In this document: in pieces, positions 29,069 to 51,914 of the stretch | Layout: every line of letters begins with the position of its first letter | How positions within the stretch are numbered: position 1 is the first letter of the stretch | Origin: a virus | Virus record (IMG/VR): IMGVR_UViG_3300045988_086792 | Strand: one strand, 5' to 3' | Length of the DNA: 51,914 bases | Translations under genes and position numbers: made by a program | The notes under the pieces: generated by a model | Database searches by the model: none | What the model was told of the DNA's origin: nothing | The model's input: the letters and a program-made list of their open reading frames with translations, nothing else

Positions 29069-30304
29069 ATGAAAACTTATTGTAAACCGAAAGATGTTGA
29101 CATTGAGGATACCAATTTCAACATGGAAGCGGTGCATTGTGCATTCGGAAATGGAAAGCTCCGGCGGCGGGATTTCAGAACGGTTTTGACAAAGACCGGG
29201 AAAATCTCGGAACCGGAGCTGTTTTATGAGCGGAAAGAGCACAAGTGCCACAAGATCATTGATGCCATTGACGCGGTGGCTGAACAGGAAACGCAGAAGA
29301 TTCGGGACGAATGCCTGAACCTGAAACCGGTCCGGCAGTTCAAACGCATTGACGGAACCAAGATGAAAGAGCGAAATCTCTGTCAGGAGTCGCCGGAACA
29401 GCAGGTGCATGAATACATCCTCGTTCATGCACTTCAACCGCTGTTCCGCGCAAAGTTCCTGCCGGCCCAATTCGGGAGCATCCCGGGAAAAGGACAAGTG
29501 GCTGGAACCAGACTGATCGAGCGGATCATCCGAAAGAGAATCCTCGGAAAACTGGATGCGGTAAAAGGCGACGTGCATCATGCGTACCCATCCACCACGA
29601 CGCTCTGCGTCATAACGCTGCTGAAACGCGACGTCGGGAAAAACAAAAAGCTGATCTGGTATGCCGGGGCGGTGACAGAAAACTACCCGGACGGCGTTCT
29701 TCTGATTGGCGGATATTTCTCAACATGGGCGTTCAACTACATTATGAGCTACGTCCTGCGCTATCTGATGTCTCTGGTGCAGGTGCGCCGGGGCAGCGGG
29801 TCTAAGCTGGTGCGGGAAATCGTGTGCTATGCAGATGATTTTGTGCTTATCGGGCACGCTTCGCAGCTCATGAAAGCAATGAAGAAAGCAACGAGGTGGG
29901 CAAAGTCTGCGCTGGGGCTTGAGATCAAACGGGCATGGCAGGAAGTGCGGTTTGCATCTTTCGAGAAAGAAAAACAGGTGAAAGCCGCGCGGGCGGCGGG
30001 CAGCCATTACCGGACACCGGCGTTGGACATGATGGGATTTGCGGTACGCCGCACCTATACCATCGTCCGCAAAGGAGTATTCCGCAGAATCCGGCGGCAG
30101 CTGCTCCGCGCCGCTCGTGATCTTGCAACGCTTGGATTTGTTCCGCATTGGAGAGCATCCAAACTGACGGCTTACAATGGTTGGTTTACAAACAGCGACA
30201 GTACAAACCTTGAGGAAAAGTACGATGTCGAGAAAATCATGCGGGCGGCGCGATGGAGCGTTGCCCGCTGGTCTATGATCCAGAACAGGAGGAAAGCAGC
30301 ATGA
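29069..30304 (+). CDS. DGR reverse transcriptase
   Basis: 411 aa. YADDFVLIG (motif C). LLIGGYFSTWAFNY (IGxxxS-type motif). It starts 202 nt after the TR. Confidence 0.85.
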   Translation: MKTYCKPKDVDIEDTNFNMEAVHCAFGNGKLRRRDFRTVLTKTGKISEPELFYERKEHKCHKIIDAIDAVAEQETQKIRDECLNLKPVRQFKRIDGTKMKERNLCQESPEQQVHEYILVHALQPLFRAKFLPAQFGSIPGKGQVAGTRLIERIIRKRILGKLDAVKGDVHHAYPSTTTLCVITLLKRDVGKNKKLIWYAGAVTENYPDGVLLIGGYFSTWAFNYIMSYVLRYLMSLVQVRRGSGSKLVREIVCYADDFVLIGHASQLMKAMKKATRWAKSALGLEIKRAWQEVRFASFEKEKQVKAARAAGSHYRTPALDMMGFAVRRTYTIVRKGVFRRIRRQLLRAARDLATLGFVPHWRASKLTAYNGWFTNSDSTNLEEKYDVEKIMRAARWSVARWSMIQNRRKAA

Positions 30305-36757: not shown

Positions 36758-37081
36758 ATGATTGCTCCGATGCCAGAAGAATTTCAGGAAAGAAATGACA
36801 TTGCCTTCATCGTCACCGCAGCAAAATACGCTCCCGTTGAATGCACATGGGGCTTTATAAGGGCACACCATGCGGAGCTTTCGAATGACTGTTTAGAGTC
36901 ACTTGCAGGAATATTTAACGGAAAGGCTGAAATGCCAGATGCAAAATATTACCCGCTGGCGGAGCAGGGTTCTTGGAAGTACGAAGAAACTCTGCGTCTT
37001 ATAGAAGAAAAGAAAAACTGGCTCTTCATGGCAAAGAACATAAGGGAACTCTTGGAAAAAAGACGAAAGGCTGGGAAATAA
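36758..37081 (+). CDS. Hypothetical protein
   Basis: 107 aa. SD AAAAGGAGA. Confidence 0.55.
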   Translation: MIAPMPEEFQERNDIAFIVTAAKYAPVECTWGFIRAHHAELSNDCLESLAGIFNGKAEMPDAKYYPLAEQGSWKYEETLRLIEEKKNWLFMAKNIRELLEKRRKAGK

Positions 37082-37083
37082 AT

Positions 37084-38711
37084 GTGATTCACCTTGGAGA
37101 TATTACGAAAATCTGCGGCGACCAGATAGAACCGGTGAATTGCATCACATTCGGAAGCCCTTGCCAAGACCTTTCCATTGCTGGCCGCAGAGCTGGTCTT
37201 GCAGGTGAACGGTCGGGACTTTTCATGGAAGCGATTCGGATCATAAAAGAAATGAGGGCAAAAACGAATGGAATGTATCCAACTTTCGCTATTTGGGAGA
37301 ATGTCCCCGGAGCTTTCAGCTCTAACAGCGGAGAAGATTTCCGCGCAGTGCTGGAAGAACTTGCCCGCGTGGAACAACCAGACGCTTCAATTCCTCGACT
37401 TGCGGGGGGGGGCAGCGTTGGAAACGAGCAGGGACAATCATCGGAGACGGATGGAGTTTGGCTTGGCGACAGATTGATGCTCAATATTGGGGAGTCCCCC
37501 AGCGCCGCAAAAGAATCGCTCTTGTCGTGGATTTTGCAGGTGGACGCGCCGGAGAAATATTATTTGAGCGCGAGAGCCTGCCGGGGCATCCTGACCAGAG
37601 CATCCCGACGTGGAAAGAAGCTGCCGAAACTGCTGGAAACTGCGTTGCTGGAAATGATCGAGTGGTGGGAGAACGAAGTTTCTGCATCAGCGGAAACACC
37701 GTTGACCGAACCACAAACCAAAATGGAACAGGCGTGAAAGAAAATGCTGCTTTTACGGTGAATACGGTTGACCGTCATGCGGTGGCCTACACGTTGAAAA
37801 TCCGTTCGGGGTGCGCCGGAGGCGGAAAGGGCGCATTGGTGCAGACAGAAAAAGTCGGGACGCTATCGACACTCCAAGATCAGACTCTTTTTCAACCGGT
37901 CGTTTTTGACGCACGGGGCAACGGAGATGGGAAGATAGCTCCGACCATTACCGGGGACCATGAAAGCAGAATCACGGATTACACCGCCGTTGCAGTTGAT
38001 TTGTATAACGGCGCTGTGACTGGCGACAAAACTGCATCCATTACTTGCAGGAGCATCGGGTCACATTCTGGGCCGCAGGTGGTGGAGCAAAAAACTTTTG
38101 CAGAACAATCATACAGCAGTTTCAAAATGGAAGAAACGAGCGGAACAATCAAAGGCTGCGGTGGAGGCACTGGATATAGTGGAGAATGCTTAATTGCAGA
38201 AAAGAATTGCCTGACTCCGTGGGATTCGCAAGGACGAAGAGTCTATGACGAAAACGGAAAATTTCCATCTCTTCAGGCACGAGAAAAAGCCGGGGGAAAT
38301 CAGCAAACAGTGTTGACAGAAATAGCGCCGATGGAGAAGATGATTCGATGGATCGTGCGCAGGTTGACCCCGACAGAATGTGAACGTCTGCAAGGATACC
38401 CGGATGGCTGGACGGACATCGGAGAATGGACGGACACCAAAGGGAAAAGGCATAAACCAGCAGACACTCCGCGCTATAAGGCGCTGGGCAACAGCATTGC
38501 GCTTCCGCAATGGTTCTGGATTGCCCAGAAAATGAAACAATATCTTCCAGCAGGTGCAACGCTGGGCAGTCTGTTTGACGGCATCGGCGGTTTTCCTCTA
38601 GTGTGGGAGACTACATACGGGAAAGGGACTGCCCGGTGGGCATCGGAAATCGAAGAATTTCCTATTGCCGTGACAAAGAAATGGTTTGCAGATGAGGAAT
38701 CGTTGAAATGA
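37084..38711 (+). CDS. DNA (cytosine-5) methyltransferase, circularly permuted motif order, out of frame at a G9 tract
   Basis: The first frame has GSPCQ (IV) and WENVPG (VI). After G9 the 37458 frame has AQYWGVPQRRKR (VIII), RRLTPTECERLQGYPDGW (IX), YKALGNS (X), then SLFDGIGGF (I) and WASEIEEF (II) at the C-terminus. One extra G gives a single frame of about 540 codons. The start is uncertain (GTG 37084 or ATG 36973). Confidence 0.75.
37404..37412 (+). repeat. Poly-G tract (G9) inside the C5-methyltransferase gene
   Basis: CTTGC-GGGGGGGGG-CAGC. The frame changes exactly here. G10 or G7 would be in frame. Confidence 0.9.
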
Positions 38712-46062: not shown

Positions 46063-46437
46063 CTATATGTCGTTCTCGCTGTTTGGTGCATGGCGCTTGA
46101 TGATGATTCTGGGGTTACCTGCATCGGTTGGTGTGCCCTCTTTGGCGATACGGTCAAGCAGACCGGTGGGAAAGCCTTGCTCATCCAGCGGGCCGGCATA
46201 TCCGTCGTAGTCAACGACCGTTACGACCGGTGGCTGCGGCAGGGCTTTATAGTATTGCCCATCTTCATAGTTTGCATCGGTAACACGATCCCACCATACA
46301 ATGTCGCCGTGCTGGGTCTGGGCGGCGCTCATCGCGTCTACGGCCTGCCGCTCGGTCAAACCGTCGAACGTCAGGCGGGAGCCGTCGGAAAATGCGCCAA
46401 CAATGCGCCAAGGGGCGAAAAACTCCGTTTCACTCAC
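46063..46437 (-). CDS. Hypothetical protein (island gene a)
   Basis: 124 aa, GTG start, SD AAATGAGGTG. It has its own upstream TGTTATACT extended -10 at about 46520. Confidence 0.55.
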   Translation of the reverse strand: MSETEFFAPWRIVGAFSDGSRLTFDGLTERQAVDAMSAAQTQHGDIVWWDRVTDANYEDGQYYKALPQPPVVTVVDYDGYAGPLDEQGFPTGLLDRIAKEGTPTDAGNPRIIIKRHAPNSENDI

Positions 46438-46580
46438 AAAAACACCTCATTTCTGAACGCTTAACCCGGATTTTGATACAAATATGCGCATTTTGAGAAC
46501 ATAAGCACCAGAAAAACGCATATTCAAGACAGCAATAGTATAACACAAGATGCCCCGGCGGGCTACCGGGGCAAGATGGC

Positions 46581-46850
46581 TTAGACCTGCTCGAAGTGCG
46601 AAATGATGCGCCGGGACAGCGCAAAGGCAATGGCGGGAACATCATCGTCCGTTTCGCTGACGGCTTTGATCGCTTCGGCGATTCGGGCCAGATCATCCAC
46701 TGTGATGCCGCCCGGTTTGCGGCTGGACGTGTCCGCGTCGGCCAGAATGCGGTCATATTCTTCACAATCGCAGCGGGTGCAGTAGTCGTTGGCAATGCAG
46801 GCGTAACGTGCGCCCTCAGCGTCAAGAATGCGGGTTTCCTTGAGTTTCAT
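46581..46850 (-). CDS. Hypothetical Cys-containing protein (island gene b)
   Basis: 89 aa. CIANDYCTRCDC. SD GGAGG. Confidence 0.55.
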   Translation of the reverse strand: MKLKETRILDAEGARYACIANDYCTRCDCEEYDRILADADTSSRKPGGITVDDLARIAEAIKAVSETDDDVPAIAFALSRRIISHFEQV

Positions 46851-47011
46851 GTAAATACCTCCAAAGTGATGTGCATTTGCTCGTCCCGGTAGGGATTCGA
46901 GTTTTTAGATTTGCCGGTCTGGGTATATAGATACCGGGGCTGGCGGCGGGTGTTGCCCTTGCGGGCTGGGATGGGGCTGCTTTACGGTGCAACCCCGTCA
47001 GAGTATCCGTT
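46851..47011 (-). repeat. Structured leader repeat R1
   Basis: Core at 46968-47010 (plus strand GGGATGGGGCTGC-TTTACGGT-GCAACCCCGT...AGTATCC), with compensatory changes relative to R2-R5. Shares the CCCGGTAGGG...GCCCTTGCGGGCTGGG block with R2. Confidence 0.65.
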
Positions 47012-47923
47012 TTACTGCTGGCCGTCCAGAACCTCCATGACGCGGTGAGCGGCATACTTACCATTGTCGTTGAGCTGGCGCTGCCAAGCTCCCTGCGACG
47101 GGGCCCATTTGAAACCGTTCCGCTTGAGAAGCGTTCTGGTTTCATCATCGGGCTTGCCGTCGAAAAGAAACTGGACACGCATTGCTTCTGTATTCTCCCG
47201 GTAGGTGTAGCCGTCGTGCTCATCTTCCACAGGCTGTGCAGCTTTGGCCGCTTCGAGCTGGGCAATGCGTTCCTTTACTCGCTTGATGGTCGCATTGCTG
47301 TTTTGCAGCTCATAGGACGGGAAAAGACAGCCGTAGACCGAAAGCGGGGAACCGCTGGCGAAAGCATGGCCGTTTTCAAGCCAGTTTCGGGTCTTTTCCG
47401 TGATGCCGGGGCAATCGTCAAGTGTTTTGTGCTTGCGGTAGTAGGCATTCGCGTCTTTCATGGTCTGGTGTGCGGTTTGGAGCTGGTCGAGCTTGGCGTG
47501 GAGATAATCCAGCACTTCGGGATCATCAGACTTGACCGCGAACGTGTGCGCCCGCTTGAGCATCTGCAAATAGTGGTCAGCCTTGCGGAAATTCTCCCGG
47601 TTCGCGTCCCACGCTGCTACCTGCTTCTCTTTCTTGTGAACAGGGAAGTTTGCAGGGCCGCAGATGAGCACAGACGGGCAGCGGGTCCCAATCTCGTTTT
47701 CGCGGTTGATTGCTTCGGCCAGAACGGCACAGTACCGGTTGTACAGCCATTCGGCCCGCTCCCGCTGGTCTGCGGTGGCGCACTTGGGCTTGACCTGCTC
47801 AAGAATTGCGGCAGCCTTGGCGCATTGGGCGTTGTAGCTGGCGGTGGCGCTGCCCTCCACATAGTCAGAGAAAGAAGAAAGTTCTTTCGCAATGCGGGCG
47901 GCGGATTCGTTGATAATAGCCAT
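47012..47923 (-). CDS. DUF3560-like protein (island gene c)
   Basis: 303 aa from ATG 47923. C-terminus RVQFLFDGKPDDETRTLLKRNGFKWAPSQGAWQRQL is typical of DUF3560 proteins of plasmids and ICEs. Confidence 0.6.
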   Translation of the reverse strand: MAIINESAARIAKELSSFSDYVEGSATASYNAQCAKAAAILEQVKPKCATADQRERAEWLYNRYCAVLAEAINRENEIGTRCPSVLICGPANFPVHKKEKQVAAWDANRENFRKADHYLQMLKRAHTFAVKSDDPEVLDYLHAKLDQLQTAHQTMKDANAYYRKHKTLDDCPGITEKTRNWLENGHAFASGSPLSVYGCLFPSYELQNSNATIKRVKERIAQLEAAKAAQPVEDEHDGYTYRENTEAMRVQFLFDGKPDDETRTLLKRNGFKWAPSQGAWQRQLNDNGKYAAHRVMEVLDGQQ

Positions 47924-48065
47924 GATAAAAGCCTCCAATATTCAGTTCTCAAAATGCGTTCCGCTTTCCCCGGTAGGGGTCCGCGTTTTCGTGCTGCCCT
48001 TGCGGGCTGGGGCGGGGTCGCTTTACGGTGCGGCCCTGCTGAGGTATCCGGGGCGGTTACTGCCG
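47924..48065 (-). repeat. Structured leader repeat R2
   Basis: Core at 48009-48052 (GCGGGGTCGC-TTTACGGT-GCGGCCCTGC, then TGAGGTATCCGG). Box TATTCAGTTCTCAAA at 47939-53 next to the SD. Confidence 0.8.
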
Positions 48066-48578
48066 CTAAAGAATGGAACTGATCCATGTAGAGGGGTCGG
48101 AGTAGTCAACCAACTTGGCGTAATGTTTGCATTGAACAAGGCTGTACGCATACTGCATGGTGTAGGAGCCGGTGTAAAATTCGCGGCTGCAAAACTCTTC
48201 GACGTTGTGACGGGTGTGCCATGCAAGCGGCGGCAGGACGTTCAAGGCGTCGTCGAACTGCTGTTCGGTGATCTCCTGCATGGGGTCGGAGAGCAGGCGC
48301 TCCCGCTGGGCGTTCAGAAAGTCGCCGTAGGTCATGGTGGAGAATGTGCGGGCCTTTGCTGCTTCAAGGCATTCCGTCCAATACTCTTTCCGGTCGTCAT
48401 ACCTGCCAGAGTTCAGAATATTTTCGTACCGGCGGACATCATCGGCGGCGCTGTCCTGAGCGGCTTTCAAGACCTCTTCCGGGGTGCGGGGGCCGCGCCA
48501 GCTCGACGCGGTGAAATCGTAGAGGGTGCAGGTGAATGTATCCACCACGACAAGCTCCATTTTCTCTTGTTCAGTCAT
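48066..48578 (-). CDS. Hypothetical protein (island gene d)
   Basis: 170 aa from ATG 48578 (SD AAAGGAG). The upstream in-frame extension is the type-2 repeat, not coding. Confidence 0.55.
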   Translation of the reverse strand: MTEQEKMELVVVDTFTCTLYDFTASSWRGPRTPEEVLKAAQDSAADDVRRYENILNSGRYDDRKEYWTECLEAAKARTFSTMTYGDFLNAQRERLLSDPMQEITEQQFDDALNVLPPLAWHTRHNVEEFCSREFYTGSYTMQYAYSLVQCKHYAKLVDYSDPSTWISSIL

Positions 48579-48606
48579 GTTGCAAAACTCCTTTCGTGGG
48601 CTGTAA

Positions 48607-48679
48607 CCCATGAGCGCCCGCCCCGGCGGGGGCGGCTGGGCTTGCACCAGCGGCGGCGGGATGCCGTCGGCCTTGCGGG
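48607..48679 (-). repeat. Type-2 intergenic repeat, copy 1
   Basis: About 73 nt, near-identical to 51416-51489 (one 1-2 nt indel in a hairpin loop and one substitution). Contains the hairpin CCGCCCC-loop-GGGGCGG. Confidence 0.85.
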
Positions 48680-49264
48680 TCATTCGGAAAACATCTTTTT
48701 GCAGAGCGCTTCTACCTCTTCAGTGGGCTTGATAGGGCACATGACCATTGAAATGGTCGGATCGCTGGCACAGACGGCGTACACCGGCGCATAGCCGGAC
48801 GCTTTGCCGTAGTAGATGAATTGTGCCGGGTTTACCATGCTGTCATAGATGACGTTCACCAAGATGGGCGCGGGGCCGACGTGAAAAAGCCTTGCAAGAC
48901 CGCTTTTCTTCTTGCCGGTGGGGATGTCCTGCAAAAACGGGGTGCGCTGTACAGTCTTTTCCTTGCAGGCGGCGCTTTTGAAGATGTCCACCAGATCGGG
49001 GGCGTGTTCGTCCACCTCAAAACCGTACTGGGCGGAAACGATGGTCACGCCGTCGGCGGGGCACTCGCGGAGCGTTACGGGCTGGATGATGTCAGGGTAG
49101 AGCATCGCAGGGAGCTTGAACGCGGTGTGCGGGGTCATGATGTAAACCAGATCGCCCCGGCGGGTGACGCGGATGCCGCGCTGATCCTTGGCCTGCTCCT
49201 TGAGGTGGGATTGAATCGCCTTGATGTTCAGGCCGAAAAGGGTAAAATCGTTAGAAAGTTTCAT
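48680..49264 (-). CDS. Hypothetical protein (island gene e)
   Basis: 194 aa. SD AGGAGG. Confidence 0.6.
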   Translation of the reverse strand: MKLSNDFTLFGLNIKAIQSHLKEQAKDQRGIRVTRRGDLVYIMTPHTAFKLPAMLYPDIIQPVTLRECPADGVTIVSAQYGFEVDEHAPDLVDIFKSAACKEKTVQRTPFLQDIPTGKKKSGLARLFHVGPAPILVNVIYDSMVNPAQFIYYGKASGYAPVYAVCASDPTISMVMCPIKPTEEVEALCKKMFSE

Positions 49265-49365
49265 GATATGGTCCTCCTGTTATTCAGTTTTCAAATGGTC
49301 CCGGCGGTGTGCCGGGTGTGGGGCGGGGCCGCTTTTCTGGGTGCGGCCCTGCTGGGGTATCCCAT
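49265..49365 (-). repeat. Structured leader repeat R3
   Basis: Core at 49320-49363. Hairpin CCCGGCGGTGTGCCGGG at 49300-16. Box TATTCAGTTTTCAAA at 49281-95. Confidence 0.8.
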
Positions 49366-50205
49366 TCAGCAGAAAGAAATCTGCTCACAGTATGCCGGGG
49401 CGCTGTCTGCGCTGGGCGCGGGGTCTGCTTTGGGCTGGGGCTTTGCTTCGGGTTCCGGCGCGGGAGCAGGTGCGGCGGCTTGTGGGGCTGTCTCTGCGGC
49501 TTTCCGGGTTTCGGTAGCCTTGCGCCACTTTGCCAGCGCTTTCGCTTGGGCGGGGCGGTCCTCTTCGGACACGGCCATAAATTCGTGCATCGCTTTCCGC
49601 TCTGCTCTCTTGAGATCGGCCGCGCTGGGCGCTGCTTTCTGCTTGGGGGCCGGGGCAGGCGGTTCGGCGGGTTTCGGCTCACTCTGGGGCTTGTCCTGCT
49701 GGGCGGCAGCCTTTGCGGCTTTGCGCTGGTCGGCCAGCATTTTGTTATAGGCCCGGATTTCGTCGAGACTCTGAAACCGTCCGGCGGGCTTGGGCTGCTG
49801 CTTCTCGACCTGCCCACGGTGGAACAGGTGAGCTTTTGCCAGATAGTAATAGCCTTTATCCTGTTCGGCGGCGGCTTTGGTCAGCTCGTCAGCATCCGGC
49901 GCGGGCTGCTTCTTCTTGTCGTTGAACTTCCACAGTTCGCAGGTGATCGCGGCTTTTTCGCCGCGCTTGACGGTCAAGCCGTCCCTGTGCCACTCTGCCC
50001 AAGTGTGAAATAGGCCAGCACACAACAGGGATTCAGCGCTTTCGATGGGGTCCGGGGTGTTGCCGTTGTCATCGGGAACAAGTTCCAGACCGGCGGCGAT
50101 GCCCTGCACCTGTTCGGCGGTATAGAACCGGCTCACCAGATCGTGACGCTGGGCGGAATCGTAGTTGCTGCAAACTTCGTTGAAGATGATTTGCTCGTTG
50201 GTCAT
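49366..50205 (-). CDS. Protein with weak ArdC-N-like (ssDNA-binding, antirestriction-type) N-terminus and Ala/Pro/Lys-rich tail (island gene f)
   Basis: 279 aa. FHTWAEWHRDGLTVKRGEKA resembles the W..G..V.KGEKG motif of ArdC N-domains. The C-terminal half is low-complexity. Confidence 0.35.
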   Translation of the reverse strand: MTNEQIIFNEVCSNYDSAQRHDLVSRFYTAEQVQGIAAGLELVPDDNGNTPDPIESAESLLCAGLFHTWAEWHRDGLTVKRGEKAAITCELWKFNDKKKQPAPDADELTKAAAEQDKGYYYLAKAHLFHRGQVEKQQPKPAGRFQSLDEIRAYNKMLADQRKAAKAAAQQDKPQSEPKPAEPPAPAPKQKAAPSAADLKRAERKAMHEFMAVSEEDRPAQAKALAKWRKATETRKAAETAPQAAAPAPAPEPEAKPQPKADPAPSADSAPAYCEQISFC

Positions 50206-50304
50206 GGTAAAACCTCCTGTATTCAGTTCTCAAATTGTCCCGGCGGTGTGCCGGGTGTGGGGCGGGGTCGCTTTATCCGGTGCGGCCCTGCTAAGGCATC
50301 CGGG
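50206..50304 (-). repeat. Structured leader repeat R4
   Basis: Core at 50259-50304. Hairpin CCCGGCGGTGTGCCGGG at 50239-55. Box TATTCAGTTCTCAAA at 50220-34. Confidence 0.8.
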
Positions 50305-50502
50305 TCAATGATATTTCTTCTTCAGCCGCTCGACCGCTGCGGACGCTTCGCGGTGGGTGTCACAGTGGCAGCTTTCGTAAACGATGAAAGCGGACATTGT
50401 TACACCGGGGCAGCCGGTCGGGTTTGGCTCTCCGCCTTTGTGGGCATACCCGGCGGAAACTGTGAAACCGCCGCGGCTGGAGGGGGTGATTTTGTACTCC
50501 AT
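50305..50502 (-). CDS. Small hypothetical protein (island gene g)
   Basis: 65 aa. SD AAAGGAG. Confidence 0.5.
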   Translation of the reverse strand: MEYKITPSSRGGFTVSAGYAHKGGEPNPTGCPGVTMSAFIVYESCHCDTHREASAAVERLKKKYH

Positions 50503-50520
50503 GCGGTGCGCTCCTTTCGG

Positions 50521-50892
50521 TCAGTCCTCTTCATCGGGGCAGCAGCTCCAAAGAACGTCGGCAAAATAGTCATCGTCGAAGTCGTCCGGCGTTCCGTTGC
50601 TGTTCATGATGAGGATGCAGCGTTGACCCACGGCGGGCAGGTCGTCGCGGCGGCTGATCTCTGCAAGTGCATCAGCGCAGATGATCCAGCGTTCCCCGTC
50701 GTCGTCGGTGATCCAGTAAACAAGATCGTCGTCAGCGGTAAAGACACGCTCAACCTCTGCCCCGGCGATGTACAGACCGAACGCGCCGGGGGTGCGGTTG
50801 ACATTGGCGGCGCTGGCTTTCGGGGTAGAACCTGCCAGCAGGGCGGCGGACAGCGCCAGCGCGGCGGCTGTGGTGGTGATTTTCTTCTTCAT
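50521..50892 (-). CDS. Secreted acidic protein (island gene h)
   Basis: 123 aa. Sec signal MKKKITTTAAALALSAALLAGSTPKASA|AN. SD AAAGGAGAAG. Confidence 0.6.
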   Translation of the reverse strand: MKKKITTTAAALALSAALLAGSTPKASAANVNRTPGAFGLYIAGAEVERVFTADDDLVYWITDDDGERWIICADALAEISRRDDLPAVGQRCILIMNSNGTPDDFDDDYFADVLWSCCPDEED

Positions 50893-51006
50893 GGCTGCTT
50901 CTCCTTTCGGGTTGTGGGTTTGCGTTCGGATGATCTCCCGGCTGTTGTCGGGGTAGTGGGACGGGGTCGCTTTACGGTGCGGCCCTGCTGAGGTGTCCGG
51001 CGGTGG
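50893..51006 (-). repeat. Structured leader repeat R5
   Basis: Core at 50958-51003 (ACGGGGTCGC-TTTACGGT-GCGGCCCTGC, then TGAGGTGTCCGG). Confidence 0.75.
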
Positions 51007-51192
51007 TCATTCAAGCGCCGCCAGTGCGGCGGTTAGACCTGCTTCAAAAAGTTTTTCGTTCTCTTCGTCGGTTTTGCTCAGATCGTTGGAGTAGTTGCAG
51101 GCGGGCCACAGCGGGCAGTTGCACGGCCCGCGCTGCGTCCAGTTCCGGCGGCAAAACTCTTGCTCAATCCGCTTTTCGGTTTCGGCTGTCAT
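51007..51192 (-). CDS. Small Cys-rich protein (island gene i)
   Basis: 61 aa. CRRNWTQRGPCNCPLWPAC. SD AAAGGAGA. Confidence 0.5.
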   Translation of the reverse strand: MTAETEKRIEQEFCRRNWTQRGPCNCPLWPACNYSNDLSKTDEENEKLFEAGLTAALAALE

Positions 51193-51415
51193 GTTCTGTG
51201 TCTCCTTTCGCTGCTTTGAATTTTCCCGGCGGTGTGCCGGGGGTGCTTGTTGAGCCGGATTTTAGCCGGTCCTTTCTGCCCCGTCAAGGCCCCGTTTTCC
51301 GTTCCCCTTGTCCCCCCTACGGGGGACAGGGGAAGAAAATTTGCACCAAAAAACGCTTGATGTTTTGGCGATTTTCACGGCGCGGGGGAGTATAGAGGGG
51401 GTATAGGAGTAAAAC
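51193..51415 (-). repeat. Leader region R6 (partial member of the repeat family plus a long hairpin)
   Basis: Hairpin CCCGGCGGTGTGCCGGG at 51224-40. A 12-bp-stem hairpin CCCCTTGTCCCCC/GGGGGACAGGGG at about 51305-35. It lacks the R1-R5 core. Confidence 0.5.
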
Positions 51416-51489
51416 CCCATGAGCGCCCGCCCCGGCTTGGGGCGGCTGGGCTTGCACCAGCGGCGGTGGGATGCCGTCGGCCTTGCGGG
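51416..51489 (-). repeat. Type-2 intergenic repeat, copy 2
   Basis: See 48607-48679. Confidence 0.85.
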
Positions 51490-51573
51490 GCGGGCTTGCT
51501 TTCACGTCCTTTCTGTGGTAAAATGGCTTACAAGATGGACCGTCGAAAATTCATCTTGCAGCCTGTCACCTGC

Positions 51574-51672
51574 TCAGCGGGTGGCGGGCTTTTTCTTTTG
51601 CCACTCTGCCAGCAGTGCGGCCCAAATGGCGCGCTTGGTGGATTCGGGAAGTTCAAAAAACTTTGCGCTCAT
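51574..51672 (-). CDS. First small ORF of the leftward operon (island gene j)
   Basis: 32 aa: MSAKFFELPESTKRAIWAALLAEWQKKKPATR. SD AAAGGAGAA 8 nt upstream. About 60 nt downstream of the leftward promoter. Confidence 0.4.
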   Translation of the reverse strand: MSAKFFELPESTKRAIWAALLAEWQKKKPATR

Positions 51673-51740
51673 GTGTGCTTTTCTCCTTTCGCAGACTCGC
51701 AACCGCTTCGGCTGTTTGCCGTGGCGCTTGCTGTGGCATT

Positions 51741-51769
51741 ATCTTAGCATGACGGAATGCCATTGTCAA
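51741..51769 (-). promoter_or_regulatory. Leftward early promoter (near-consensus sigma-70 type)
   Basis: The reverse complement reads TTGACA, 17 nt, TAAGAT. Operator copy 1 fills the spacer. It points into the minus-strand gene island. Confidence 0.65.
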
Positions 51770-51843
51770 GCATGACGGAATGCAATCTACTTTTTGCACA
51801 AAAACATGACGGAATGCTTGTGCAATTTTGCATGGCGGAATGC
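51748..51843 (+). promoter_or_regulatory. Operator/iteron array: four direct 13-bp repeats CATG(A/G)CGGAATGC
   Basis: Copies at 51748-60, 51771-83, 51805-17 and 51831-43. The last two recur at 32-44 and 58-70 in the overlap. They sit within or next to both divergent promoters. Confidence 0.8.
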
Positions 51844-51914
51844 CGCTTGATTTGCTATAATATAATAAACGCGCGCGAAAAGAGGTGATATGATGCCGAT
51901 TTCGGAAAAAAAGA
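51774..51914. repeat. Terminal redundancy, right copy (identical to 1-141)
   Basis: Same 141 nt as the window start. It re-includes the rightward promoter and the first codons of the 117..338 gene. Confidence 0.95.

Follow-up and report, generated by a model that had tools for sequence, protein, structure and literature searches.

RAGATH-5 is a catalogued RNA motif of unknown function, which reportedly came out of a 2015 comparative-genomics screen for RNAs located near genes associated with twister and hammerhead ribozymes. Between the early genes of phage T7 and Bacillus phage SP82, the described structured elements are RNase III hairpins, which are double-stranded over approximately 20 bp or more. 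Ribozymes in phage operons have been proposed to process polycistronic transcripts, according to a review co-written by the discoverer of the motif (PMC6765202). Currently, the clustering of small self-cleaving ribozymes in phage operons is an open question, and RAGATH-5 is an orphan motif from the same search. Here we describe five RAGATH-5 copies located between the genes of a leftward operon in the viral record IMGVR_UViG_3300045988_086792, whose whole stretch of 51,914 nucleotides (nt) is called the window, and we report that in related loci RAGATH-5 and the twister-sister ribozyme replace each other at an orthologous junction. In a literature search by name, to which the 2015 original was external, no work on RAGATH-5 or RF02685 was found, and mentions of RAGATH concerned RAGATH-18 only.

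The whole window was scanned against Rfam, with gathering scores of 50 for RAGATH-5 (RF02685) and 34 for twister-sister (RF02681). Seven matches above the curated thresholds were detected, all on the minus strand, five to RAGATH-5 and two to twister-sister. The RAGATH-5 matches were full-length (1-53/53), with scores of 52.7-66.2 bits and E-values from 7e-6 to 9e-9 for the whole window. They lie between cistrons lettered a to h, and the triple classes given for three of them are explained with the structure.

46960-47010, minus strand: RAGATH-5 copy R1, between genes b and a (RF02685, 61.2 bits; triple class U9 C10 / A35 G36)
48001-48051, minus strand: RAGATH-5 copy R2, between genes c and b (64.3 bits; triple class C9 U10 / G35 A36)
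49312-49364, minus strand: RAGATH-5 copy R3, between genes e and d (52.7 bits; triple class C9 C10 / G35 G36)
50251-50303, minus strand: RAGATH-5 copy R4, between genes f and e (65.1 bits)
50950-51000, minus strand: RAGATH-5 copy R5, between genes h and g (66.2 bits)

Since these matches coincide with five hairpin-containing repeats that a first-pass annotation had noticed from the letters of the DNA, the repeats are real and catalogued; being members of a catalogued family, they also represent a rediscovery. A covariance model built from the five copies recovered exactly the same five within the window, so that both models agree on essentially the positions first proposed. A supposed 61% sixth copy at 49415-49458 lies inside a gene and was set aside as a chance match. 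No further Rfam family was found on the element at E<=10, the sole extra match being a chance isrB.

The main reason for considering that RAGATH-5 serves the same purpose as the ribozymes is the interchange of both elements at gene junctions. The two ribozymes of the window, which the first-pass annotation had missed together with the RAGATH-5 identity, are as follows.

48601-48683, minus strand: twister-sister ribozyme, between genes d and c (RF02681, 84.3 bits), overlapping the UGA stop codon of gene d and ending approximately 20 nt ahead of the next start codon
51410-51493, minus strand: second twister-sister ribozyme (78.7 bits), past the small first open reading frame (ORF) and upstream of the second promoter

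When the ORFs flanking every element in the related loci were called and clustered, the orthologous junction between clusters 16 and 6 carried twister-sister in two loci and RAGATH-5 in three, either element beginning directly behind one and the same TGA, that of the orthologous gene upstream. Moreover, half-junctions shared by both elements were recorded downstream of cluster 5 (RAGATH-5, 16; twister-sister, 10), upstream of cluster 6 (19 and 4, respectively), downstream of cluster 1 (7 and 18), and downstream of cluster 7, which corresponds to the small first ORF (36 and 3). Furthermore, in 14 related loci scanned with Rfam there were nine full-length twister-sister matches, one marginal match, and one hammerhead II; these ribozymes share the strand of RAGATH-5, with co-orientation in 8 of the 14 loci, a tally that counts 10 ribozyme matches.

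Related copies were collected from viral contigs by a pattern scan followed by the covariance model built from the window's five copies, which yielded 294 matches in 80 viral loci plus the window. Among genome assemblies, only Faecalibacterium, Gemmiger, Oscillibacter, and other Oscillospiraceae/Clostridiales loci passed the model, the pattern on its own being too loose genome-wide: the covariance model rejected most of its matches in Streptomyces, Proteobacteria, and the like. A metagenome scan yielded additional RAGATH-5 copies. Loci hold one to eight copies each, and none has copies on both strands.

The position of the element is strictly intercistronic. In 399 of 416 copies, position 1 comes 0-15 nt after the end of an ORF of 50 codons or more, with a mode of 6-7 nt, and from the stem (counted from position 43) to the next start codon the median distance is 56 nt (interquartile range, 54-67). 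In the window, where the elements had been said to abut the preceding stop codon, the spacers are indeed 1, 14, 1, 1, and 6 nt; the promoter-proximal leader has a second hairpin only, and the last gene ends in a terminator.

The same arrangement occurs in a cultured phage of F. prausnitzii, FP_Toutatis (NC_047915; L360), which carries six RAGATH-5 copies above the threshold and one degenerate copy, at sites listed at L360 3266-7661 and 6594-6645. The degenerate copy follows gp41, and the deletion of one base in its stem leaves it under the Rfam threshold. Five of the six copies and the degenerate one begin 3-7 nt after an annotated coding sequence and the sixth approximately 70 nt after, all seven being located in unannotated intergenic DNA. 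Phage Lelie has at least one matching stretch.

Regarding structure, 147-159 distinct cores were parsed into Rfam model positions, whose numbering is used below. Conservation is high, with approximately 27 invariant columns among the five window copies and many invariant positions in 147 distinct copies. The stem pairs positions 13-22 with 33-42, and in 159 cores it shows compensation from C-G to U-A at 20/35, from G-C to A-U or C-G at 13/42, and from GGG/CCC to CCG/CGG at 16-18/37-39. Within the window, the base changes first described for R1 and R3 were found again (U-A at 20/35 and A-U at 13/42 in R1; C-G at 19/36 in R3). A pair counter recorded 82.9% of cells as paired, against at most 38.6% with slid partners, and changes on both sides at 13/42 and 20/35; this figure omits G18-C37, a pair that is included in the 159-core count. 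The '10-bp stem' of the first-pass annotation is fully paired only on the plus strand; the hairpin there described is the antisense one, and in gene sense two positions are mostly A.C and C.A (15/40, A.C in approximately 61% of distinct cores; 19/36, C.A in approximately 36%).

The strongest covariation was detected outside this stem, at 10/36, which is C-G in 94 and U-A in 58 of the 159 cores, and at 9/35, which is C-G in 89 and U-A in 63. Each of the two combinations is complementary in 95.6% of cores, the level of the canonical pair 20/35, against 50-51% in shuffles, a level that none of 2000 shuffles attained. The covarying positions run in parallel register (n to n+26); an antiparallel pairing of 9-10 with 35-36 was rejected with only 52-53% complementarity. 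Position 10 tracks the purine at 36 irrespective of position 19, and the mutual information of positions 9 and 10 reaches 0.87 with 35 and 0.94 with 36, compared with at most 0.21 for any flank position; for both reasons, shared ancestry alone is insufficient to account for the signal. No alternative partner for 9 and 10 was found in the 20 nt upstream, the 70 nt downstream, or the loop. This code is as predicted by Hoogsteen triples 9.35-20 and 10.36-19, and the window's own five copies include three of its four classes.

In addition, a pseudoknot is indicated by positions 1-4 with loop positions 24-27, in which 3/25 and 4/24 are invariant G-C, 2/26 is C-G in 146 and G-C in 8 (the G-C switch belonging to the UGGG...CCCA class), and 1/27 is Watson-Crick in 60% against 31% in shuffled data. 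In the window, the strands are UGGG with CCCA in R3, and CCGG with CCGG in R4. Each copy is, thus, most likely a compact H-type pseudoknot with two major-groove triples, a model that we infer from covariation and not from a solved structure. The pyrimidine-rich linker 5-12 would occupy the major groove along the long stem, in parallel with its 3' strand, placing 9 on pair 20-35 and 10 on pair 19-36 in U.A and C+.G triples of Hoogsteen type.

Unpaired invariant nucleotides are A5, A23, A30-32, and C43-A46. The last of these form a tail that is nearly constant among 147 copies (C43 in 144, C44 in 147, C45 in 145, and A46 in 146) and variable from position 47 onward; it follows the closing pair 13/42, which is G-C in 134 of 159 cores, and it is unpaired in folds. 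Examples of C-C-C-A in the window are located at 48006-48009 and 50256-50259. In sequence, the tail after G13-C42 resembles a tRNA discriminator followed by CCA, a resemblance that we treat as a speculative lead.

Behind the elements, the order is a CCCCAY tail, a hairpin designated P2, and an A-rich leader (ACGAAA). P2 stands behind the conserved CCCCA tail in 82% of distinct contexts, compared with 43% of length-matched coding controls. The first-pass annotation had reported an identical second hairpin in three leaders and a 15-nt box at three leaders; all of them are present, although the hairpin at 51225-51241 follows a promoter and is not attached to a core. These accompanying elements are listed below.

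46955-46966, minus strand: hairpin P2 after R1, GCCC-GCAA-GGGC in RNA sense (sequence)
47996-48007, minus strand: hairpin P2 after R2 (sequence, fold)
49300-49316, minus strand: hairpin P2 after R3, CCCGGC-ACACC-GCCGGG in RNA sense (repeat search, fold)
50239-50255, minus strand: hairpin P2 after R4 (repeat search, fold)
51225-51241, minus strand: identical hairpin P2 in the leader of gene h, with no RAGATH-5 core, just downstream of the promoter at 51287-51259 (repeat search)
47939-47953, minus strand: 15-nt leader box (UUUGAGAACUGAAUA) 5' of the Shine-Dalgarno sequence of gene b (repeat search)
49281-49295 and 50220-50234, minus strand: further copies of the 15-nt box (repeat search)

As a separate observation, a RAGATH-5 subfamily from Oscillibacter/Oscillospiraceae loci (L123, L131, and L238) has the stem core CCG/CGG in place of GGG/CCC and no hairpin P2, the core running directly into an A/C-rich unstructured leader.

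The operon in which the five copies stand is composed of mostly uncharacterised genes, with sparse PHROG and Pfam matches, and it is delimited by promoter-like and terminator-like sites.

46581-51192, minus strand: eight co-oriented cistrons, a to h (ORF calls)
46581-46850, minus strand: gene a, 89 amino acids (aa; ORF)
47012-47926, minus strand: gene b, 304 aa, matching phrog_19458 'primase' and, weakly, DUF3560 (ORF, PHROG, Pfam)
48066-48581, minus strand: gene c (ORF)
48680-49264, minus strand: gene d, 194 aa (ORF)
49366-50205, minus strand: gene e, with a relative named DUF1738 by one source (ORF)
50305-50502, minus strand: gene f (ORF)
50521-50892, minus strand: gene g (ORF)
51007-51192, minus strand: gene h, the first large cistron (ORF)
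51574-51702, minus strand: small first ORF (ORF)
51741-51769, minus strand: promoter-like site 1 at the operon head, TTGACA-17-TAAGAT with TG (promoter scan)
51259-51287, minus strand: promoter-like site 2 upstream of gene h, TTGACG-17-TAAAAT (promoter scan)
46551-46573, minus strand: terminator-like hairpin with a T-rich tail, closing the operon after gene a (terminator scan)

Taken together, we give about even credence to the reading that RAGATH-5 is an intercistronic mRNA 'punctuation' that does the job of twister-sister at equivalent junctions, in cleavage or in stability. The five copies would be transcribed within one leftward polycistronic mRNA, in which each element would mark a cut site or a stop to decay, leaving each cistron with its own structured ends. 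The candidate agents would be the RNA itself or a trans factor such as RNase P; beyond the pseudoknot and the C-C-C-A, a second hairpin would usually follow, and then the A-rich leader up to the next ribosome-binding site. The analysis shows the family identity, the architecture, the placement strictly between cistrons, and the positional exchange with ribozymes; a role in RNA cleavage or stability, as well as the nuclease that would act, is what we infer. The first-pass annotation had listed processing or stability elements among its options, and this is the one best favoured, although it had missed the pseudoknot and the triples.

Several points weigh against this reading. Full interchange was observed at one junction in five loci, to which the half-junction counts are added. 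Other structures obtained by the same search strategy 'did not cleave in experiments', and their functions are unknown, although RAGATH-5 is not named in that statement (PMC6765202). The pseudoknot is more elaborate than a nuclease roadblock requires. Moreover, A.C and C.A cells number 184 in gene sense against 50 G.U cells, and the plain hairpin is consequently more stable as antisense: nearest-neighbour energies range from -11 to -23 kcal/mol for the sense hairpin and from -24 to -35 for the antisense one, and three of the five sense copies fold no better than shuffles. In the bias control, twister-sister stems were 95% Watson-Crick, leaving few non-Watson-Crick cells. One would not usually expect this A.C excess in a functional sense RNA, unless protonated A+.C pairs and C+ triples belong to the fold. 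The A.C mismatches may indeed be such protonated pairs. At 19/36, C.A occurs with U10, C-G with C10, and U.G with C10, while U-A occurs in 0 of 159 cores (approximately 12 expected), so that a protonatable base, C or A, may be present in this layer in every case. We favour the sense RNA as the functional strand because the triple code reads purines of the sense strand and has no antisense counterpart, because every copy is co-oriented with the genes and with true ribozymes, and because a ribozyme can take the place of the element; still, antisense stability remains a weakness of the model.

Among specific versions, it is conceivable, though we consider it rather unlikely, that RAGATH-5 is a stand-in for a ribozyme cleaved in trans, in which a pseudoknotted helix, braced by the triples and ending in the invariant N-CCA, would mimic the acceptor end of a tRNA and be cut or trimmed by RNase P or a tRNA-end enzyme. 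If true, this would represent a phage version of 'tRNA punctuation', explaining a ribozyme-like position with no self-cleavage in vitro. In the window, ARAGORN detected neither a tRNA nor a tmRNA, and a T-loop sequence is absent from the loop; since nothing tRNA-like was detected, the mimicry stands as a lead only. A close variant, a new ribozyme class, may require protonated C+ or A+ and hence acidic conditions.

That RAGATH-5 itself is a new class of self-cleaving ribozyme, active only under conditions such as low pH, folding during transcription, the presence of the whole intergenic region, or a different metal ion, is in our opinion unlikely. The occupation of twister-sister junctions by an RNA whose tertiary fold is conserved, and in which many unpaired nucleotides do not vary, is what would be expected, and the layer 10/36/19, being C.G-C, C.G.U, or U.A.C and never U.A-U, would perhaps always offer a protonatable base. 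However, the motifs of the screen beyond the three new ribozyme classes did not cleave, while the same review leaves room for some of them being ribozymes that the assay conditions did not activate (PMC6765202), and the sequence alone names no candidate scissile site.

In the gene 32 leader of phage T4, a pseudoknot is where binding starts, before it extends along an A-rich stretch devoid of structure. By analogy, RAGATH-5 could serve as an operator through which an RNA-binding protein of the phage or the host regulates translation of the next cistron; the first-pass annotation had also listed a translational regulator, and we regard this reading as improbable. The fixed distance to the next start (median, 56 nt) and the A-rich ACGAAA leader behind the element would suit such an operator, as would the commonest neighbouring gene family, with its relative named DUF1738 by one source, which we take to be the N-terminal single-strand-DNA-binding domain of ArdC. 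Nevertheless, P2 interrupts the leader in 82% of contexts, the promoter-proximal first cistron has the same leader with no pseudoknot, and replacement by a self-cleaving ribozyme is not what an operator predicts.

The antisense stability of the hairpin also raises the alternative that the structure acts on the other strand or in DNA, as a cassette-boundary recombination site or as an antisense or single-stranded DNA (ssDNA) hairpin that shuffles cassettes. The analogues would be the bottom strands of integron attC sites or the repeated promoter-stem-loop cassettes of T4-type phages, and we regard this reading as likewise improbable. Compared with window positions 46400-51914, entire genes are gained or lost in related loci, with breakpoints at RAGATH-5 or P2 elements: a locus 98-99% identical (L064) has no counterpart of 50305-50527 (gene f), another (L109) has none of 47010-47990 (gene b) via recombination between R1 and R2, and a third (L060) has none of 50954-51223 (the gene h cassette), the gene order between elements being mosaic. 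The repeats thus appear to be seams for the exchange of accessory cassettes among these phages. We treat this shuffling as a consequence and not as the primary function, since homologous recombination between repeats of 60-100 nt suffices to explain it. By Pfam, no integron-type tyrosine recombinase was found among the array genes and ten other larger ORFs in the 30-45 kb region, the sole integrase-type match being an IS30-like rve transposase 13 kb off. As the first-pass annotation had already noted, the sequence is far more conserved than that of attC sites; moreover, the code at 9/35 and 10/36 follows the purines on the 3' strand in gene sense and has no antisense counterpart, and the element is interchangeable with a bona fide RNA ribozyme.

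Very improbable is a pseudoknot for recoding or termination pausing that acts on the ribosome as it completes the gene upstream. In favour of it, the H-type pseudoknot, triples included, stands most often 5-8 nt behind the stop codon, which is UGA in 71% of cases. Against it, the spacer ranges between 0 and 32 nt and keeps no consistent frame, read-through would extend the products by arbitrary lengths (0-576 codons), each gene downstream is equipped with a Shine-Dalgarno sequence and a start codon of its own, and twister-sister can substitute. By the statistics of spacers, stop codons, and extensions, recoding was rejected. A small-ligand riboswitch aptamer before each gene, comparable in fold to SAM-II or guanidine-III, is scarcely credible: a major-groove triplex in an H-type pseudoknot is the fold of several small aptamers, yet there is no evident expression platform, the Shine-Dalgarno sequence lies approximately 45 nt off behind a separate hairpin, no terminator is present, no riboswitch family matched at E<=10, and five to seven copies before unrelated genes are unlike known riboswitches.

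Least credible of all are nut/put processive antitermination signals, an option of the first-pass annotation, and intrinsic terminators, which it had rightly dismissed: conserved hairpins do suit an early phage operon, but there are five to seven copies per operon and not one per promoter, each beginning at a stop codon, the elements have no U-tract behind them, and the gene-strand terminator scan gave no terminator-like site at or between the five elements or anywhere from the promoters to 46573, the boxA/boxB consensus not having been searched. Promoters in ssDNA form, of the Frpo type found in plasmid leading regions and also suggested at first, are not supported, since the 10-position stem builds no -35/-10 hexamers, the replicon is a tailed phage, and the element swaps with an RNA ribozyme.

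The window itself is, by its gene content, a Faecalibacterium-type tailed phage or prophage. A gpA-type large terminase, a lambda-type portal, and major capsid protein E were identified, as well as a weak tail-sheath match and a tape-measure-like protein. The nearest sequenced relatives are Faecalibacterium phages Lelie and FP_Toutatis, with approximately 67% nucleotide identity across the terminase-portal region; a search for near-identical phages returned almost no match for the leftward island itself.

Other features were also observed in the window. Near the operon head, a strong plus-strand terminator-like hairpin with a T-run is located at 51560-51590 (region 51519-51600), preceded upstream by TGGTAAAAT, which is extended -10-like, and by a small hairpin; 51519-51600 could encode a short RNA of approximately 75 nt, antisense to the last part of the small first ORF. 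The leftward promoter-like site is overlapped by four direct repeats of approximately 18 nt (AGCATGACGGAATGC...) at 51746-51846, and a rightward TATAAT-like site, near 51850, lies opposite them; in sequence the repeats look like operators of a divergent early control region. In the tail-fibre region, a 411-aa ORF at 29069-30304 (plus strand) has a weak match to reverse transcriptase (RVT_1) and may be part of a diversity-generating retroelement. An IS30-like transposase (HTH_38 and rve) lies inside the phage at 32402-33469, and at 36973-38711 a C5 cytosine methylase is divided between two overlapping ORFs in different frames, which could reflect a frameshift, a pseudogene, or a sequencing error.

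The comparative results sharpen what to test and do not establish a mechanism. Position, interchange, and fold lead to concrete predictions on structure and cleavage sites, and the role of RAGATH-5 is directly testable because the cultured F. prausnitzii phages FP_Toutatis and Lelie carry arrays.

In comparison with known systems, RAGATH-5 resembles integron attC sites and T4-type promoter-stem-loop cassettes in being a structured repeat after each gene, with indels that end at repeats; it differs from them in being highly conserved and promoter-free and in showing sense-strand RNA covariation, and no integron integrase was found in the ORFs scanned. With the RNase III hairpins of T7 and SP82 it shares the repetition of a structured element between cistrons of an early polycistronic transcript, whose pieces would each keep structured ends. 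Its stem, in contrast to the extended duplex of about two helical turns in such sites, has 10 positions, of which two are usually mismatched in sense, plus a pseudoknot, and for this reason RAGATH-5 would be a poor RNase III substrate.

Among pseudoknots with triplexes, such as those of SAM-II, telomerase RNA, and luteovirus frameshift sites, the likeness lies in a loop 1 parallel to the 3' strand of stem 2, an A-rich loop 3, and U.A and C+.G covariation of Hoogsteen type, whereas RAGATH-5 has no sequence relation to them, no ligand platform, and no recoding signature. As in the tRNA-like end of turnip yellow mosaic virus (TYMV) and the hairpin-NCCA substrates of RNase P, a helix is followed by one nucleotide and a single-stranded C-C-A, with a stacked pseudoknot; compared with TYMV and tRNA ends, however, the RAGATH-5 stack would have 14-15 layers instead of 12, the CCA is internal instead of 3'-terminal, and there is no T-loop.

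Twister-sister and other small ribozymes of phage operons are closest in setting, with the same operon, the same strand, the same placement from stop codon to leader, and interchangeability, while the fold is unrelated and RAGATH-5 is not known to cleave itself, RAGATH-5 keeping two A.C positions where the stems of twister-sister are 95% Watson-Crick. Within the RAGATH-5 family, finally, the window copies are like the other members in their hairpin, conserved flanks, expected strand, association with ribozymes, and phage genes. The pseudoknot, the two triples, hairpin P2, and the NCCA-like tail are added here, though the original description may already hold them. In brief, for a motif that was already known, the useful additions are the pseudoknot-triplex model and FP_Toutatis as a test system.

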